A DNA stretch of 62,199 bases, the filler included, from Globobulimina sp. (Eukaryota), in assembly GCA_003354225.1 (NCBI GenBank). It is 27 parts of 27 records of this genome, joined end to end, with 100 filler letters (N's around TTAATTAATTAA, not from the genome) between each part and the next. Parts side by side here need not be neighbours in the genome. Positions count along the whole stretch, not along the records: positions 32,319 to 34,525 come from PIVH01008193.1; 26 more parts are not named here. One strand, given 5' to 3'. The stretch's first letter is position 1. Each line of letters opens with the position of its first letter. Below the pieces are notes generated by a model. The model did not search any database, was not told where the DNA came from, and saw only the letters and a program-made list of their open reading frames with translations. Of this stretch, positions 4,208 to 60,023 are shown piece after piece. A program made the translations under genes and the position numbers.

Positions 4208-4618
4208 GCTTTTGCTCGTGGCATCAAATGGCATTGGATATTCTCTCTAGACTCTCGTCGCAGTGCTCGCAAGCATGAAATATGTTCGCTTTCGTGAGCT
4301 ACCACATTCTCAAATTTTGAGCTACCAATAACGCACCATGTGTAGCTAGCTACCTAGCCAGTCGTAGCTGTTGTAAAATTAGGAATGATTTATTATATAC
4401 CTTACTCATATTTACGAATAAAATCCATGATGAAACTTCGGAACGCTTGAGGCTGAGCGTGATGGAATTCAGAATTCAGTTTCCCTTTTAGAAGCAATAG
4501 GTACGATACTACTATGGANNNNNNNNNNNNNNNNNNNNNNNNNNNNNNNNNNNNNNNNNNNNTTAATTAATTAANNNNNNNNNNNNNNNNNNNNNNNNNN
4601 NNNNNNNNNNNNNNNNNN

Positions 4619-6827: not shown

Positions 6828-6927
6828 NNNNNNNNNNNNNNNNNNNNNNNNNNNNNNNNNNNNNNNNNNNNTTAATTAATTAANNNNNNNNNNNNNNNNN
6901 NNNNNNNNNNNNNNNNNNNNNNNNNNN

Positions 6928-8650
6928 AGTCATTAATTGGATCATTTTGATTTAAACGTTTATTGAGGAATTTGAATTTATTAAAATAAACTGTTTTAGT
7001 TTTTTCTTTGTTCATTTGGAGGTTAAAATTATTGACCATAGTCCAGAAATCATCCAATTTGGTTCTCGACAATGCATCGGATAGTCCGTTGGAGGATGAT
7101 GAAGTCCAATCAATCCAAACTAAGAAGCGGCACTCCAGCATTAAATGGCACAGTTCATATATAAATAACATTAAGTTATAGGAATGGGACCATTTACGTT
7201 TGAATGCGTAGAAAACAGATTCGTTATCAACAAATAAATGAACTGTTTTGCCCGAGAGATAATATCGGAATGTATAGAGTGCTGATAACATGACATGGGC
7301 CTCTTTTTGATTGATATGCCATTCCTTGGTATGGTCTGCAGTAAATTCATAATGCGACCAATAACCACCCATTACAAAACCACCATTGGTGGAGGAGGCA
7401 TCTGTGGAGGCCGAGATTGTCATTTTCTTTGTCATTAATATTTCGGACATAGGAACGGATAGGATTTGATCCGCAAAATAATACCAATATCGCAAATCAT
7501 TGATTATTGACAGCGGGAGTATAAAATGATGGTTTTTTGGATATTTGCCCGAGCGAATATTGGTATGGATGAATTGGAGGAGATTCCAACATAATGCTTT
7601 TGTTGGTTGTTTTAATTGGGCCCAATGCATAATTGTGCCACATATGGATTCTAAGGCTGCTCCTGTTATGACTCTATATTGCATTGTATATAGGAGCAAC
7701 TGTTTAAAATTATGGTATTTGACAGGCGGTATTCCAATCATTTTGGTTTTCAAATCAAAGGAAATACCATATAACACTGCAGATTGACACGCATGAATAA
7801 AGCCTGACTCTTTTAGCGAAACTTGAACGTTTAGCGCTTTCATCAATGCGTCAAATCGTTTTTCCATTTCAATGCAGTCCGCTTCTTTAACCGCCCCAAG
7901 CACAAAGTCATCAATGTGCACAAGGGAGTGACCGCGCCAATTTTTATCAAAAATTCTATTGTCAAGTATCCAGATCAATATTTGCGCAAAATATTGGGAA
8001 TTTGCCGGTGCAGAGGCTACGCCATATGGTTGTTTTCTATCACGCCACACCAAACCAAAAAGGGAGTAACAAATATAGTCACTGTCTTCCTCACATAATC
8101 CAATTTGGCGAAAAAAATCAGACAAATCTCGAATTGCAAAGAAATTGCAATCAATCAATGTTTTGATATATTTTTTTAAGTTTGGTAGTGAGGGTATTTT
8201 ACATTTGATTGGGCGGATTAATTCATTTATGGAGGAGGTTGATTCGGTTTTAAATGAACCGTTTCTGATCACGCGGAACTTGGTGTATTTCCCTTGTCCG
8301 TCTTTCTTCGGGGTACAGAAGATCATAATCATATATTTGGGGGTACCAAAAAATGGTTCAATCTGACCATTTTCAGCTTCACTTATCATTTTATCGAGTA
8401 TCGCCAAGGTTTCTTGAGGTGTATTGGCAATATTCGAGATTTTTGTGGATAATTTGTTATGAATGATATGAGATTGTTGTTGTTGTTTTGATTGGAAATG
8501 TGTTTTTAACCACAATGGAAATCCGACTTTGATCCATTTTATATCAGATTTTCCTTTTGGTTTTCCTTTCAAATATTTCTCAAATAGAGGGATATTAAAT
8601 TGGTTGTGATATTTAGATGGTTCATTATGGAGTTGTGTGAAACGACACAA
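6928..8650 (-). CDS. Reverse transcriptase-RNase H of DIRS/Ngaro type (3' partial)
   Basis: RDLSDFFRQI, QPYGVASAP, HIDDF RT motifs; TDAS, HINQKE, FVDN, NGLSDALSR RNase H motifs. Confidence 0.9.
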
Positions 8651-32218: not shown

Positions 32219-32367
32219 NNNNNNNNNNNNNNNNNNNNNNNNNNNNNNNNNNNNNNNNNNNNTTAATTAATTAANNNNNNNNNNNNNNNNNNNNNNNNNN
32301 NNNNNNNNNNNNNNNNNNTTCTGATTTTAACAAAATTAATTAACCAACCTCAAATTGATTAACAATC

Positions 32368-32892
32368 ATGGCAGACAAAACAAAGGCTAATGTATGCACA
32401 GCCATTGTTGCATTTATTACGCAGTTTCCATTATTCTTTAGCTTTTGATGATGGGGCAATTCGATAGCTGTTGTTTTAGGTATTGCAGTATCAACAACAT
32501 CATACATAATATCAGAATTTATAGCGTTGCTTATTGTTATTACATTAATATTGCCCACATTTTATTTTGTAATGAGGAAATCAAAAGAAAGGAGAGGTTA
32601 TAAACCAGCAATTATCATTGCTGTTGGCTTCATATTCATTACAACTCATTCAATCTATCAGTTAGTTACCAGACACTCACCATTCATGATGAGAGTATTG
32701 GCACTCATTGGTTCTGTCTTAATTATAATTGGAGTTGCTTACAATGCAAGTTTCGAAATCAAATTGTTTCTGTGGATCAAACGTTTTTCATCAAAACCCT
32801 ATCAAAATTGTTGTCAAAAGTCATCCTCTCTCAATAATACTGCAAAACAAATAGATTTAACATCTCAAACTGCAGAAAGCACAAAAACATGA
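32368..32892 (+). CDS. MerC-like 4-TM protein with tandem in-frame TGA TGA (candidate UU selenoprotein), 174 codons
   Basis: aacaatcATG start; MADKTKANVCTAIVAFITQFPLFFSF**WGNSIAVVLG...ERRGYKPAIIIAVG...LIGSVLIIIGVAYNAS; TGAs at 32446-32451. Confidence 0.65.
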
Positions 32893-32909
32893 TCATATAT
32901 TTCGAATTC

Positions 32910-33031
32910 AATGAATTGAAAGCGTTAATTGTAGCATATGGTTATTGCATAAGTGAGGATCTGTATTGCTGCAGATCTGAAAATTCAATCTTCAGTCAAC
33001 CAATCAAGCTAATCATTGCGCTAAATTCATT
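32910..33031 (+). promoter_or_regulatory. 3'UTR stem-loop, candidate non-canonical SECIS
   Basis: Nested pairings AATGAATT/AATTCATT, AGCG/CGCT, TAGC/GCTA, TGGTT/AACCA; apical GTGAG-GATCTGTA-ttgc-TGCAGATC-TGAA. Confidence 0.45.
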
Positions 33032-33118
33032 TGTAAATTAAACATACTGTTATTTTGCATAAAAAAATTGATTTCTGATTAGGTTTTTTTTACTAAATAG
33101 GTTTTTTACTTATTAAAG

Positions 33119-33893
33119 ATGCAAAAGTCTTTGTTTAACGACACATACAATTATTATATTGGTGTTCGCCATGCTGAATCACAAGCAAATGTAGAAAATC
33201 TAATGGTAACAAACCCAGAAATCGGTATTGAACATTATTGTTAATTTGACTTTCCATGCAAATAAATCTATTTTCCTGTCATAACAAAGGTTGCAACGGA
33301 TATGGATTGACACAGAAAGGTGTTCAACAGGCAATTGATGCTGCAAAATATATCAAAAATAGAATAATTCCTAAAATCAACAATTCAACACATAATCATA
33401 GATTCACCATCAGTGATATCAATATTTACCATTCAGACTTCAAAAGAACCACAGAGACTGCCATCCATATAGCAAACTCATTAAATATTGACATATCAAA
33501 CAATGTTTTCCCTCCAGATTATTACGTGAGAGGTTCTATGGTGAATTAGATAATAAACCATATCAAGTAATATTTGATAACCAAATATGGAGGAAAGATG
33601 TTGAAAACATTGATAATAATCATTGTGGAGTAGAATCAATCAATTCTGTTTCAACAAAATTCAAACACTTTGTATCCAGTATTGAGAGGAATGAAAAGCT
33701 TAAATATTCCAAACCAAAATTAATTATTGTTTGCAGCCATGGGGATAATTTGAGAATTTATCAATCGCTTTTTCAAAATACACCACTTAATCAATGCCAT
33801 ACGCTCAAATGGTATGGCAATGCAAGAGTGCGTGACTGGTCTGCAATGACAATCAGTATTCACTCCAAATCAGTTCTTGCGTCAAAACTGTGA
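33119..33893 (+). CDS. Histidine phosphatase (PGM family) with C-terminal SKL; intron 33225-33289, frameshift near 33511
   Basis: VRHAESQAN, GLTQKG..QA, SDFKRTTETA, LRERFYGELD, SHGD motifs; ends ...ASKL*. Confidence 0.8.
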
Positions 33894-33990
33894 CACTAGC
33901 GATATTAGGCAGTAGTGACAAAAACTTCTTACCTTGATTCAATAAATATATTTCCGAGAGTTTTTGAAAAAGCAAACAAAAGCATCGTCA

Positions 33991-34487
33991 ATGGAGCCCA
34001 TTGAACAACAGCCGTTGGTTCAACATGAAAACAATGCAACACAAGATTTTGGCGAGTCTGAATACGGTGATCGGTTACAATATAAATCAGCTCCGCCATA
34101 TAGGGATATTGTATTTGCCATTGTATTTATTGTGCATTTAATAATCATAATTTGTGTAGGATTTATTCTTTGGACATCCCGCTATGAATATATTGAAAAT
34201 AATTCAAATAATTTATGGGATTCTGATGTCTCAGCCACTGCCATTTTTATTGGTGTTTTAGTGATTTCATTGTGTGGAATATTTATTGCATTGTTATGGT
34301 TGGTCATAATGAGACGATATGCATCGAGCATAATTAAGACAATGTTATTTTTAAATATTGCGACATGGATCGCAGTTACAATTATTGGTGTTGTCATTGG
34401 TGAAATAACATTGATTATAATTGGCGCCATTTGCGCTGTGATATATATATTATGGACATGGTGTATTTGGAGAAATATTCCTTTCAG
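33991..34487 (+). CDS. Choline transporter-like (CTL/Pns1) first exon (3' partial)
   Basis: YRDIVFAIVFIVHL...WRNIPF followed by a gtaac donor. Confidence 0.75.
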
Positions 34488-34722
34488 GTAACAATGTTAA
34501 AGATAATATATTTTGCATTCAAATCNNNNNNNNNNNNNNNNNNNNNNNNNNNNNNNNNNNNNNNNNNNNTTAATTAATTAANNNNNNNNNNNNNNNNNNN
34601 NNNNNNNNNNNNNNNNNNNNNNNNNAGTTTTAATTATATTTACAATTTCGCACTTTCGCACTTTGAAATTTATACTTTCGCACTTTCACACTTTTATTAA
34701 TAAATAACAAAGGGAGAGTGTA

Positions 34723-51260: not shown

Positions 51261-52975
51261 TCATACAATATCTTTAAACAGTTTTTTATATGAATCGGTA
51301 AAGGTGAACCTTAAAAACGAATTTTCTCGCGTTAAATTCCAAATTTCTTCAAAAGCAGTATCAAAAATATGATACAAATACGTATTGATTAACAAATATT
51401 TATTAATAGCAGCTGGACATTGTACAGTTTCATCTGTCGCTCCGCCCGAATGTCTCACAATATATTCAAAAAACTCATCACTATCTTTCTCAAACAAATG
51501 TATTAAAAAATTCCTTGTATCACTCGATACATTCACCGATAAATCGCTGTTTTGTTTTACATACTTATCATAGAGAAAAAACGCAAAATCCCGGATCCAT
51601 TCAGAGCTCACCGAGCATGTTCTTGGTGTATTAATATGTAAAGCAGATAGTCGTTGTGTGCTGTATGAAACCGATGTTGTTCGCGGTGTGCCCGATAATG
51701 TGGCAGGAGACTGCGGCACCGCTATTTGCGAAGCTTTTCTATGAACCATTGATATCCGGAGATCTCTGTAAGTTTTGGTTGCGTCAGAGATGGGTGACAT
51801 TGCCGGAAGCATTGATTCCGACAATGATTCGTTAAAATAATTAAAAGGCCGCAAGTGCCATGCAATTGGAATCCAATCACGCTCTAAAATGGATTGCTGA
51901 AACTTTTTGAATAATGTATTACGTCTGTTGGCAGAATCACTCATATAAAGCCTAGAATATTCTATTCCATCTGTACATTTTTCAGCAAATAGCATATCGG
52001 AAACAGTGTATTCTTTTTATTCACATACTTTGTGCTCCAAATGAAGCATTTCTTTGCTTTCTGCTGCAAATAAGGATCTGTCGAATGTTTCGTTGTCGAA
52101 CATTGATCGAAAAAAATTGAGACAATCGATCTGGCACTGTTTGTTTTTGTTTTTTTAGGACTTTCCATAATGAAAAAGGAACAATGAGTACCGTTATAGG
52201 AGCACAATGACGCTTTGTATTGAGCCACTTCTACCAAAAATAGTACAGATTCCACTGATAATTCGTTGACGCAATGTCGCTGTCATGTGCATAATATGAG
52301 TGTGTGTATATGGACAAAGAGCACATAGCAGCATACCATGAACGCTTCAAATGATGTTTGATGGCGCAATACATCAAGCAATGGGATTTTTTTTTTGCCA
52401 TTTTTGTTGTGATTGATAATGGATATTCTGCGTTGTTCTAATTTTTGCAAATTGAGTAATAAGCCATTTAATACCCAGCCAGTTTGCAGATAGGAAGTAG
52501 AAAAAATAAATGTTATGTCAATGAAATATAAAATGCTCTCGAACATTTTTGTTGTGTATATGGAGGTTAATAATAAGATGAGAGAGAGGATGGAAGTGCA
52601 CAATATGTAGCAAAGCATATAGGACAAATACTTCATTTCATTTGTTATGTTGAACTGATCGTTTATATTTTTTATTTTTTCGACAATAAACAGTACGAAA
52701 GCGGAGACTGGAAGACCTATACAGATACGTAACGAGACAAATAAATATTCGTCAATCAGTGTAGTTGTCTTATTTGATGATATGAGGATATTATTAATAA
52801 TATACGTGTAATAAATGTAAAGCAAAAGCATGAAAATGATGGCAATATAGATTGGGAAAACACATTTTAATAAAACAGTATCGCTGCCAAATGAATTTTT
52901 CTTATTTAAAAAGAAATTGCTCTCATTTGGACTGATAACGTTCCGCCAGTTGCGATCGACTGTGGCATTCGCAAA
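51261..52975 (-). CDS. TM plus split RGS-domain protein (7TM-RGS type); multi-exon, one apparent homopolymer frameshift; 5' partial
   Basis: LLDVL....SFEAFM|RHCVNELSVESVLFLVEV..YK and LYDKYV..NSDLSVNVSS..R, IFDTAFEEIWNL...SFLRF. Confidence 0.8.
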
Positions 52976-59888: not shown

Positions 59889-60023
59889 TTTTANNNNNNN
59901 NNNNNNNNNNNNNNNNNNNNNNNNNNNNNNNNNNNNNTTAATTAATTAANNNNNNNNNNNNNNNNNNNNNNNNNNNNNNNNNNNNNNNNNNNNTTTATAA
60001 TGAGTTTTTTCATTTTTCAAATT

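Follow-up and report, generated by a model that had tools for sequence, protein, structure and literature searches.

The window analysed here, a stretch of 62,199 nucleotides in all, consists of 27 separate contigs of 2206–2209 bases each that are joined by N44-TTAATTAATTAA-N44 linkers. One of these contigs holds a gene whose reading frame runs into two neighbouring TGA codons near its start, continues behind them, and is followed on the same strand by a second, spliced gene:

32319..34525, no strand assigned: contig holding the gene, 2207 bases, with artificial N/TTAATTAATTAA linkers at both ends
32368..32445, + strand: codons 1–26, with an ATG in strong context, the Lys-rich tail MADKTKAN, and Cys10 and Pro21 within a hydrophobic helix
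32446..32451, + strand: tandem in-frame TGA, codons 27–28, the proposed Sec-Sec, intact in the contigs of runs X1 and X2
32452..32889, + strand: codons 29–174, with Trp29, three more predicted helices, the motifs RRGY.P and (Y/W)NAS, and a C-terminal tail
32809..32814, + strand: Cys148-Cys149 in the C-terminal tail, CPKCC or CCPNCC in relatives; the nearby Tyr145 is Cys in X2
32890..32892, + strand: terminal TGA stop, by sequence reading
33120..33956, + strand: next gene, its start codon by sequence reading, with a 65-nt GT..AG intron at 33224–33288

The contig begins just 49 bases 5' of ATG 32368 (context aatcATGG), and the frame is closed by a TGA 4 codons ahead of this ATG, so that translation could start no earlier than 32368 on the contig piece. 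Recomputing the frame gave the same 174 codons with TGAs at codons 27–28 that a preliminary description of the locus had reported, i.e., 26 sense codons, TGA TGA (F-S-F-stop-stop-W-G), 146 sense codons and a TGA stop, with no TAA or TAG in frame anywhere from ATG 32368 to the stop. The window contains 90 TGATGA sites, counting both strands, and just one of them is followed by at least 100 open codons: There are 146 of them behind 32446–32451 and 44 behind the next best site.

TGA acts as an ordinary stop elsewhere in the window, as had been described previously: The 22 ATG-headed ORFs of at least 200 codons end on TGA (9), TAA (10), or TAG (3). A change of the genetic code that would turn TGA into Cys or Trp was ruled out by these 9 TGA-ended ORFs together with genes of 679, 448, and 447 codons without any in-frame TGA. 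The gene itself uses TGG for both of its Trp residues and TGC or TGT for Cys, and the contig is not mitochondrial because the neighbouring gene has a spliceosomal intron. Ahead of the tandem TGA, codons 1–26 reach a codon-usage log-odds score of 5.8 bits in frame versus 1.4 and −1.1 bits in the other two frames, with an in-frame reference of mean 6.8 and SD 3.7, and beat 94% of stop-free off-frame windows. The window further contains retroelement debris in the form of a reverse transcriptase at 6872–8389.

Logan contigs of several sequencing runs cover the locus. A contig of run X1, which is probably the source sample, agrees with 32333–33432 without a single difference. A contig of run X2, from another study and under another organism label, spans 32393–32790 with no gaps and 4 differences, all of which are listed and none of which falls in the TGAs, while a contig of run X6 covers 32431–32680 in full colinearity with the DNA and again without gaps (4 differences, 1 of the 4 listed; TGA integrity is not claimed for this contig). 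Contigs of X2 and X6 lack the neighbouring gene's 65-nt intron and are therefore considered RNA-derived, a nature deduced from the skipped intron for runs that are not recorded as RNA. Since the X2 contig is colinear over 32393–32790 with both TGAs intact, there is no splicing, editing, or assembly error in this region, and TGATGA is thus present, unspliced and unedited, in an RNA-derived sequence. As stated earlier, no short in-frame GT..AG intron takes out the TGAs, which is also what our sequence reading and the colinear RNA contigs indicate. The contig of run X7 stops short of the TGAs, and ATG 32368 is reached by none of the RNA contigs, whose 5' ends lie at 32393, 32431, and 32477.

The gene is under purifying selection. 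Inside the ORF, the 7 listed sites at which X2 differs from the window comprise 5 synonymous and 2 non-synonymous changes, the latter in the variable C-tail (p about 0.013 for at most 2 non-synonymous changes among 7 in a binomial model that assumes 75% of random changes to be non-synonymous). Four of the synonymous differences are located at codons 38–49, one of these at codon 38. Another X2 contig, spanning 32761–33129 with the 3' end and 3'UTR, shows 6 differences of which 5 are listed, and none of the listed ones lies in 32893–33060.

By sequence comparison, the gene is a member of a tiny orphan family with proteins from Nonionella and Bolivina, fragments of environmental origin, and a single distant homolog from the sea, P0009. 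The Nonionella stella member is EukProt EP01083 P306416 and that of Bolivina argentea EP01084 P030553, whereas P0003–P0007 come from ENA contigs and P0009 from a metatranscript. An exhaustive phmmer search yielded 5 matches and a profile search 8. Codons 29–174 share 62% identity with protein P0002 of Nonionella stella, and conservation with the relatives begins at codon 33–41 or earlier. None of the 7 foraminifer-type predicted proteins has anything aligned to codons 1–26, and 6 of the 7 begin with a Met that stands opposite codon 33, 41, 46, 46, 64, and 79, respectively; such staggered starts in six relatives are as expected were their ORFs also broken upstream. Metagenome scans for the DNA of relatives gave 323 pattern matches with a 4-sequence alignment and 175 with P0009 as the query, none of which was confirmed in either scan, and a search for shorter proteins returned no match. 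In the ESM Atlas, P0009 matched unnamed clusters only (score at most 0.86) and P0007 had no usable match, and an NCBIfam scan of the window protein revealed no relevant family.

We propose that the gene product is a 174-residue four-helix membrane protein that belongs to this orphan family of foraminifera plus one distant marine eukaryote. AlphaFold predicted helices at residues 3–37, 43–72, 79–101, and 106–141 of the read-through protein with a mean pLDDT of 71 and values of about 58–69 in helix 1, and a Foldseek search of this model against the PDB gave nothing at E ≤0.001 (best E 1.8).

The part of the protein that is encoded ahead of the TGAs has a counterpart in P0009, which possesses a first helix with Pro, Cys, and Trp opposite P21, U28, and W29 (U denoting the proposed Sec). 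The BLASTP alignment with P0009 begins exactly at U28-W29 = C72-W73 (pair E 3e-8), and the gap-free MAFFT alignment sets P21=P65, U28=C72, and W29=W73, so that codon 27 stands opposite Ser71 and codon 28 opposite Cys72. Comparison of the foraminiferal profile with P0009 using hhalign gave a probability of 95.8% (E 6.9e-9) over residues 17–135. The anchored score of codons 8–29 against P0009 is +21 and is equalled by 0 of 944 other offsets; with the two TGA positions left out it is +13, a value that 0.18% of the 44,442 peptides from the window and 0.68% of the 3,551 hydrophobic ones attain, and the permutation p for the upstream peptide against the first helix of P0009 is about 0.002–0.007. As judged from these alignments, codons 1–26 are homologous to the first helix of P0009, with a Cys match that rests on one distant homolog. 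Conserved coding sequence is found on both sides of the UGA pair, on the upstream side by way of this single distant relative.

The preliminary description had viewed the protein as a MerC-like metal transporter. However, Pfam MerC matches the read-through protein (P0001) with only 13.0 bits (E 0.16; cut-off 27.6) and none of the 6 scanned relatives at E up to 10, compared to 90.8 bits for the MerC of R100 as a positive control (PF03203). BLASTP against R100 MerC gave an E of 2.0, and hhalign of alignment A3 against 5 Tn21-type MerC sequences a probability of 1.8%, the comparison set being narrow with five sequences of 65–81% identity to R100 MerC. The supposed MerC consensus RRGYGP and WNA turned out to be motifs of the orphan family that are absent from the five aligned MerC sequences. 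No mer family was detected in 40 scanned window ORFs that could provide the context of a mer operon, and the neighbouring gene is spliced. These comparisons do not support the earlier assignment, and the protein is not a demonstrable MerC mercury transporter.

What the protein would share with MerC (PF03203) and MerT (PF02411) of Tn21/R100 is architecture, a likeness that rests on the predicted four-helix model. MerC has four helices in an N-in/C-in topology. MerC and MerT are likewise small, are located in the inner membrane, and have two thiols in helix 1 (MerC as C-A-A-C, MerT as vicinal C-C, comparable to the proposed U-U of the window protein) as well as a second, cytosolic Cys pair comparable to C148-C149. 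If gap-free alignment is assumed, the weak Pfam alignment would set U28 near the first Cys column of MerC. Besides the lack of detectable homology, the window gene differs from MerC in being eukaryotic, nuclear, and placed beside a spliced gene without a mer operon, and its family has the RRGY.P and (Y/W)NAS motifs.

The insertion of selenocysteine at UGA would call for a signal in the transcript, and two structures lie in the 3'UTR:

32910..33031, + strand: long imperfect 3'UTR hairpin (178-nt stretch with an MFE of −36.1 kcal/mol, z −1.93, 8 of 200 shuffles as good)
32953..32980, + strand: GUGA-N / N-GA core-like hairpin (9-bp helix, UUGC loop), without an AAR or CC motif

Every canonical eukaryotic SECIS has a longer helix than this core-like hairpin plus an AAR or CC motif (SECISearch pattern). 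The Rfam SECIS families matched neither the whole contig nor the 3'UTR alone at E up to 10, a scan for the AUGA/GUGA...AA...GA pattern performed no better than on shuffles (60 of 200 reach the observed score), and no canonical SECIS comprising an AUGA/GUGA core, a helix II of 10–13 nt, AAR or CC, and GA was found. Any Sec insertion here would therefore have to depend on a non-canonical signal, for which the GUGA...GA hairpin at 32953–32980, located 61 nt past the stop, would be a candidate. This motif, which was defined post hoc, occurs 7 times in about 120 kb of strand, with 0.013 occurrences expected in the 228-nt 3'UTR. The window contains no tRNA, and the Pfam families assigned to 16 of 40 window ORFs include no selenoprotein or Sec-machinery family. 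Our literature search found no paper on foraminiferal selenoproteins.

We consider a tandem UGA read as Sec-Sec to be the single most likely, though unproven, reading of this locus and assign it a probability of roughly 45%. The selenoprotein that the preliminary description had suggested thus gains from the unspliced TGAs in RNA, from purifying selection, and from the Cys-Trp of P0009 at the site, but loses from the lack of a canonical SECIS and from transcript contigs that do not reach the ATG.

A less likely alternative is that the UGAs are real stops which end a 26-codon upstream ORF or belong to a 5' leader, and that the product is a shorter three-helix protein starting just behind them, e.g., at a near-cognate start such as ATA 32464 (codon 33), where P0007 has ATG. 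The first Met of P0007 indeed coincides exactly with codon 33 and that of P0002 with codon 41, and the ORF of P0006 passes the site without a stop as V-D-D-G at codons 27–30, which gives this protein a plausible acidic N-terminus directly ahead of the conserved GxGxTT segment; P0007 and P0006 are thus each compatible with a shorter protein whose start follows the TGAs. The missing canonical SECIS and the absence of ATG 32368 from every RNA contig argue in the same direction. However, there is no in-frame ATG between the TGAs (from codon 29 on) and codon 69, so that a non-AUG start must be assumed, and the starts of the relatives (33, 41, 46, 46, 64, and 79) vary as they do in first-Met ORF calling, unlike a conserved start. 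Furthermore, the frame-0 peptide upstream of the supposed stops is more similar to helix 1 of P0009 than expected by chance, and its codon usage is coding-like.

It is improbable that the gene is a pseudogene or decaying copy in which two nonsense changes hit a former Cys-Cys or Ser-Cys of an intact four-helix gene, because both TGAs occur in two organisms with different labels, between whose copies there are 5 synonymous versus 2 non-synonymous changes, and because the gene is present in the RNA-derived X2 and X6 contigs. Upstream ORF breaks are also seen in relatives from other genera, and the conversion of two neighbouring codons to TGA in 174 codons that are otherwise free of lesions is unlikely in itself. 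Decay would be consistent with the Cys-bearing P0009, in which a sense codon appears to be ancestral or at least possible at codon 28, with the failure to find a SECIS, and with the retroelement debris at 6872–8389, from which it follows that decayed copies occur in this genome.

Recoding other than by Sec, with both UGAs read as Trp, Cys, or Arg or with a frameshift from the +1 frame into the conserved frame, would make the missing SECIS irrelevant but appears similarly doubtful. The +1 frame over the site reads ...F-D-D-G-A-I-R-stop, and its D-D-G at 32447–32455 resembles the V-D-D-G of P0006. Yet double read-through would be very inefficient, and a frameshift is difficult to reconcile with an upstream +1 frame of off-frame-like codon usage (1.4 bits) and poor ATG context, with a sequence in which no slippery heptamer is evident, with the 4 X2 differences at codons 38–49 that all alter the amino acid in both other frames, and with P0009, which has Ser-Cys-Trp and not Asp-Asp-Gly at the site.

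Short in-frame introns do occur here, as exemplified by the neighbour's 65-nt intron and by a probable one that contains an in-frame TGA at 52285 (minus strand). Loss of the TGAs during mRNA maturation, through a short intron or RNA editing, is nevertheless highly improbable and already largely refuted, since X2 (32393–32790) and X6 (32431–32680) are colinear with 0 gaps in runs that do skip the neighbour's intron, X2 shows no editing of the TGAs given that all its 4 differences lie elsewhere, and no frame-keeping GT..AG pair surrounds the site.

On the Sec-Sec reading, the two neighbouring UGA codons would be decoded as selenocysteine-selenocysteine within the first helix. According to the positive-inside rule, the Lys-rich N-terminus and the RKSKERRGYK loop would be cytosolic; the Sec pair would then sit in helix 1, within its outer third, and the Cys-rich C-tail would be cytosolic as well. 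The pair would form a vicinal diselenol or diselenide inside the membrane, and its combination with the C148-C149 tail in one protein is contingent on real read-through. By analogy, the Sec pair may bind a soft metal ion and hand it over to the cytosolic Cys cluster, following the principle of MerT and MerC but with no homology to either; alternatively, it may serve as a redox centre. We further suggest, though with confidence somewhat short of an even chance, that this is the first foraminiferal selenoprotein and represents a new eukaryotic family characterized by a vicinal Sec pair in helix 1, a tandem UGA, and a minimal non-canonical SECIS (GUGA...GA, 9 bp, without AAR).

Among known selenoproteins, the predicted membrane selenoprotein MSP of Dictyostelium, Chlamydomonas, Volvox, and Ostreococcus is reported to have two Sec (Lobanov et al. 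2007, PMC2375036) and to be almost never found in a Cys form (PMC7539508). By its description, MSP resembles the proposed protein in being small and membrane-located, in occurring in unicellular eukaryotes, and in having two Sec. No Dictyostelium or green-algal protein was among the 5 phmmer and 8 profile matches, in libraries that may or may not contain MSP. Consecutive Sec-Sec is predicted for the algal PDI_e with its GUGUU motif (Jiang et al. 2020, PMC7539508), the sole eukaryotic case of two consecutive UGA predicted as Sec-Sec that we found in print. PDI_e differs in being a soluble thioredoxin-fold protein with a predicted canonical SECIS and in belonging to another sequence class than the window's membrane family. 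For Bigelowiella, a rhizarian, 23 selenoprotein genes have been reported (PMC7539508).

If the UGAs are stops, what remains would be a three-helix orphan family of membrane proteins preceded by an odd upstream ORF, a finding of minor interest. If they are read as Sec-Sec, the membrane Sec pair together with the cytosolic Cys cluster would be an attractive candidate for the handling of soft metals (Hg, Cd, and Cu) in organisms that serve as indicators of pollution. Sec-Sec decoding would also extend the use of selenocysteine to Foraminifera and add a membrane-embedded vicinal diselenol, a chemistry that has so far been predicted only in a soluble algal PDI (PMC7539508). Without a canonical SECIS, it would moreover imply a divergent insertion signal in this lineage, with a bearing on searches for protist selenoproteomes.

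The window consists of 27 separate contigs of 2206-2209 bases each, glued together by linkers; adjacent contigs carry no information on linkage, and ORFs that enter the linkers (translations ending X...LIN) are artefacts. The gene under study lies within one of these contigs and is organized as follows.

Contig boundaries and elements of the gene under study
2254-2265, 4563-4574 and so on to 59938-59949: linkers of the form N44-TTAATTAATTAA-N44
32319-34525: contig holding the gene
32368 (+): start codon ATG in the context aatcATGG, opening 26 sense codons (MADKTKANVCTAIVAFITQFPLFFSF)
32446-32451 (+): tandem TGA TGA, directly after these 26 codons (codons 27 and 28)
Behind the tandem TGA, up to the stop (+): 146 sense codons, the first being TGG
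32890-32892 (+): TGA stop of the gene

Another in-frame TGA is found four codons 5' of the ATG. Among all 90 TGATGA sites on both strands of the window, this one alone is followed by at least 100 open codons (the runner-up has 44), which confirms the long open frame around a tandem TGA that the preliminary description had reported. Its view of TGA as an ordinary stop elsewhere was likewise borne out: TGA terminates 9 of 22 ATG-headed ORFs of at least 200 codons and is absent in frame from genes of 679, 448, and 447 codons, while the gene itself encodes Trp by TGG and Cys by TGC or TGT. Ordinary eukaryotic Pfam families, among them IFT52, anoctamin, annexin, FKBP, PPR, and DEAD, were matched by 16 of the 40 ORFs scanned, and no selenoprotein family was among the matches. 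The genetic code in the window is thus the standard one, and the tandem TGA within this gene is no chance pattern. We consider a pair of selenocysteines (U27-U28) the single most likely reading, at a probability of roughly 45%, based on RNA, a signal of selection, and one Cys-bearing homolog; the missing canonical SECIS element counts against it.

Run exhaustively against 1.84 billion representatives, phmmer returned 5 hits, and a word-seeded profile search returned 8.

Relatives
P0002: Nonionella stella, 62% identity
P0003-P0007: five ENA fragments
P0008: Bolivina argentea
P0009: metatranscriptome protein of 220 aa

Both species-named relatives are foraminifera, which makes a foraminifer or something closely related the most likely origin of the window. 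The motifs RRG(Y/F)(G/K)P and (Y/W)NAS as well as a C-terminal Cys cluster occur family-wide, and Pfam scans of the window protein and its relatives gave no family at its threshold. The main rival explanation is a shorter product whose translation begins 3' of both TGAs, and we regard it as rather unlikely. Nothing in any of the seven foraminifer-type predicted proteins aligned to codons 1-26, and six of them start with Met at window codons 33, 41, 46, 46, 64, and 79; such scattered starts look as if each ORF had been called from its first Met after an upstream stop, and not like a conserved start. The seventh, P0006, passes the TGA site without a stop, with an N-terminus (M-D-V-D-D-G-D-H-Y-S-R) that precedes the conserved part; its opposite end extends into an intron. 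It is the only relative with an ORF crossing this site. Its residues 1-11 include V-D-D-G against window positions 32446-32457, where the +1 frame likewise reads D-D-G, and its DNA would, assuming common codons, share the 9-mer TGATGATGG with the window one base out of frame. This likeness may reflect a contig indel, a real frame difference, or chance.

The distant marine homolog P0009 has a complete N-terminus including the first membrane helix. An hhalign comparison with the foraminiferal profile (probability 95.8%, E 6.9e-9, window residues 17-135) marks it as a distant yet, by sequence, real homolog. Its BLASTP alignment begins precisely at U28-W29 = C72-W73, and MAFFT pairs P21 with P65, U27 with S71, U28 with C72, and W29 with W73, gap-free back to the conserved core. 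When window codons 8-29 were anchored on P0009 52-73 and scored without gaps, the result was +21, matched by 0 of 944 other offsets and 0.27% of shuffles. Without both TGA positions it was +13, a value attained by 0.18% of the 44,442 peptides from the window that are free of stops and by 0.68% of the 3,551 that are hydrophobic. Codons 1-26 have a codon-usage score of 5.8 bits when read in frame 0, and the two alternative frames yield 1.4 and -1.1; the frame 0 value is higher than that of 94% of stop-free off-frame windows (in-frame windows: mean 6.8, SD 3.7). Because of these alignments, scores, and codon usage, codons 1-26 look coding and homologous to helix 1 of P0009, with Cys at the second TGA. 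This TGA/Cys correspondence would be a classical Sec/Cys signature resting on one homolog.

Logan contigs of sequencing runs match the gene. The X1 contig is identical to the window over 32333-33432 and, probably being the assembly's own source, not independent. A contig of X2, from another study and with another organism label, spans 32393-32790 without gaps and differs at 4 positions, each of which is listed and lies outside the TGAs. Within the ORF, 5 of the 7 listed X2 differences are synonymous (third position of codons 38, 43, 45, 49, and 162), and the four at codons 38-49 would alter the protein in both other frames. The two non-synonymous ones, P144R and Y145C, fall in the variable C-tail. 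This pattern indicates purifying selection on the TGATGA-bearing copy, which argues against a pseudogene and makes that explanation improbable; we give some other kind of recoding the same low standing. At 32797-32802, the X2 tail reads R-C where the window has P-Y, placing an additional Cys three residues ahead of C148-C149 and making the tail more similar to that of the Nonionella relative, which has C-x-x-C-C.

In the gene beginning at 33120, a 65-nt GT..AG intron (33224-33288) is skipped in X2 and X6 but retained in X1, so X2 and X6 are RNA-derived. Since the X2 contig is colinear and differs only elsewhere, its TGAs are neither spliced out nor edited in RNA, which leaves removal by splicing or editing highly improbable. 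The X6 contig (32431-32680) is colinear with the window, and we make no claim on its TGAs given that only one of its four differences is listed. No RNA contig reaches the ATG at 32368 (5' ends at 32393, 32431, and 32477).

The window also holds several other features.

Other features
52285 (-): in-frame TGA between ORFs 52286-52831 and 51264-51995
23907 (+) and 26478 (-): two further single-TGA joins
34450-34487: 35-base stretch with very high coverage (maximum depth 565 in X2, 279 in X6)
6872-8389 (-): ORF whose reverse transcriptase and RNase H-like domains each fall slightly short of the Pfam cut-off

The TGA at 52285 links a 182-codon ORF to 106 more open codons, into an RGS-domain ORF, and most likely belongs to a short intron that keeps the frame, not to a recoded site. 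The high-depth stretch, covered by several contigs that diverge on either side, resembles either a repeat or a motif conserved across a multi-copy family, and lies within the contig's third gene (ORF 33991-34491). The ORF at 6872-8389 is a retroelement fragment truncated by the contig end.

Rfam searches (4227 families including those of SECIS) yielded no hit to a SECIS family, even at E values as high as 10, in the whole contig or the 3'UTR alone, and nothing at gathering scores across the window. Our own scan for AUGA/GUGA, a helix, AA/CC, and GA did no better than shuffles, 60 of 200 of which reached the observed score.

Hairpin elements of the 3'UTR
32910-33031 (+): imperfect hairpin of 122 nt, z -1.93
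32953-32980 (+): GUGA-N/N-GA motif within it, closing a fully paired 9-bp helix whose loop is UUGC

Such a motif was counted 7 times across roughly 120 kb of strand, giving 0.013 expected in the 228-nt 3'UTR, and was defined after being seen. For this reason, and because it differs from known SECIS elements in having neither the AAR motif nor their helix length, the motif counts as a hint, not as a SECIS.

The MerC-like identity originally proposed did not hold up. Pfam MerC scored the read-through protein at 13 bits (E 0.16; cut-off 27.6) and matched none of six relatives scanned, compared to 90.8 bits for MerC of plasmid R100 as a control. Together with an hhalign probability of 1.8% when the family was compared with five MerC sequences of the Tn21 type and a BLASTP E of 2, this leaves MerC membership unsupported. 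The motifs taken for MerC consensus belong to the orphan family and are absent from the five-sequence MerC alignment. AlphaFold predicts four helices (mean pLDDT 71, lower over helix 1), and Foldseek found no solved structure matching the model at E 0.001 or better.

Predicted helices
Residues 3-37, 43-72, 79-101, and 106-141

The likeness would be an architectural analogy: a putative chalcogen pair in the first helix plus a Cys cluster in the tail, an arrangement reminiscent of MerT, with its vicinal C-C in helix 1, and of MerC, with its C-A-A-C.

Our literature search found no paper on selenoproteins in foraminifera. For the rhizarian alga Bigelowiella, 23 selenoprotein genes are reported in PMC7539508. 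In PMC2375036, MSP of Dictyostelium and green algae is described as a predicted selenoprotein of the membrane that has two Sec residues, with a 75Se band of fitting size; MSP, set beside our family by description, limits the novelty that can be claimed. Judged by the positive-inside rule, the N-terminus with its many Lys residues, the RKSKERRGYK loop, and the C-tail would face the cytosol and thereby place U27-U28 in the outer third of the first helix. There, a putative vicinal diselenol could trap soft metal ions at the outer face and pass them to the cytosolic Cys cluster, or the pair may switch between its diselenide and diselenol states and so serve as a redox centre in the membrane.
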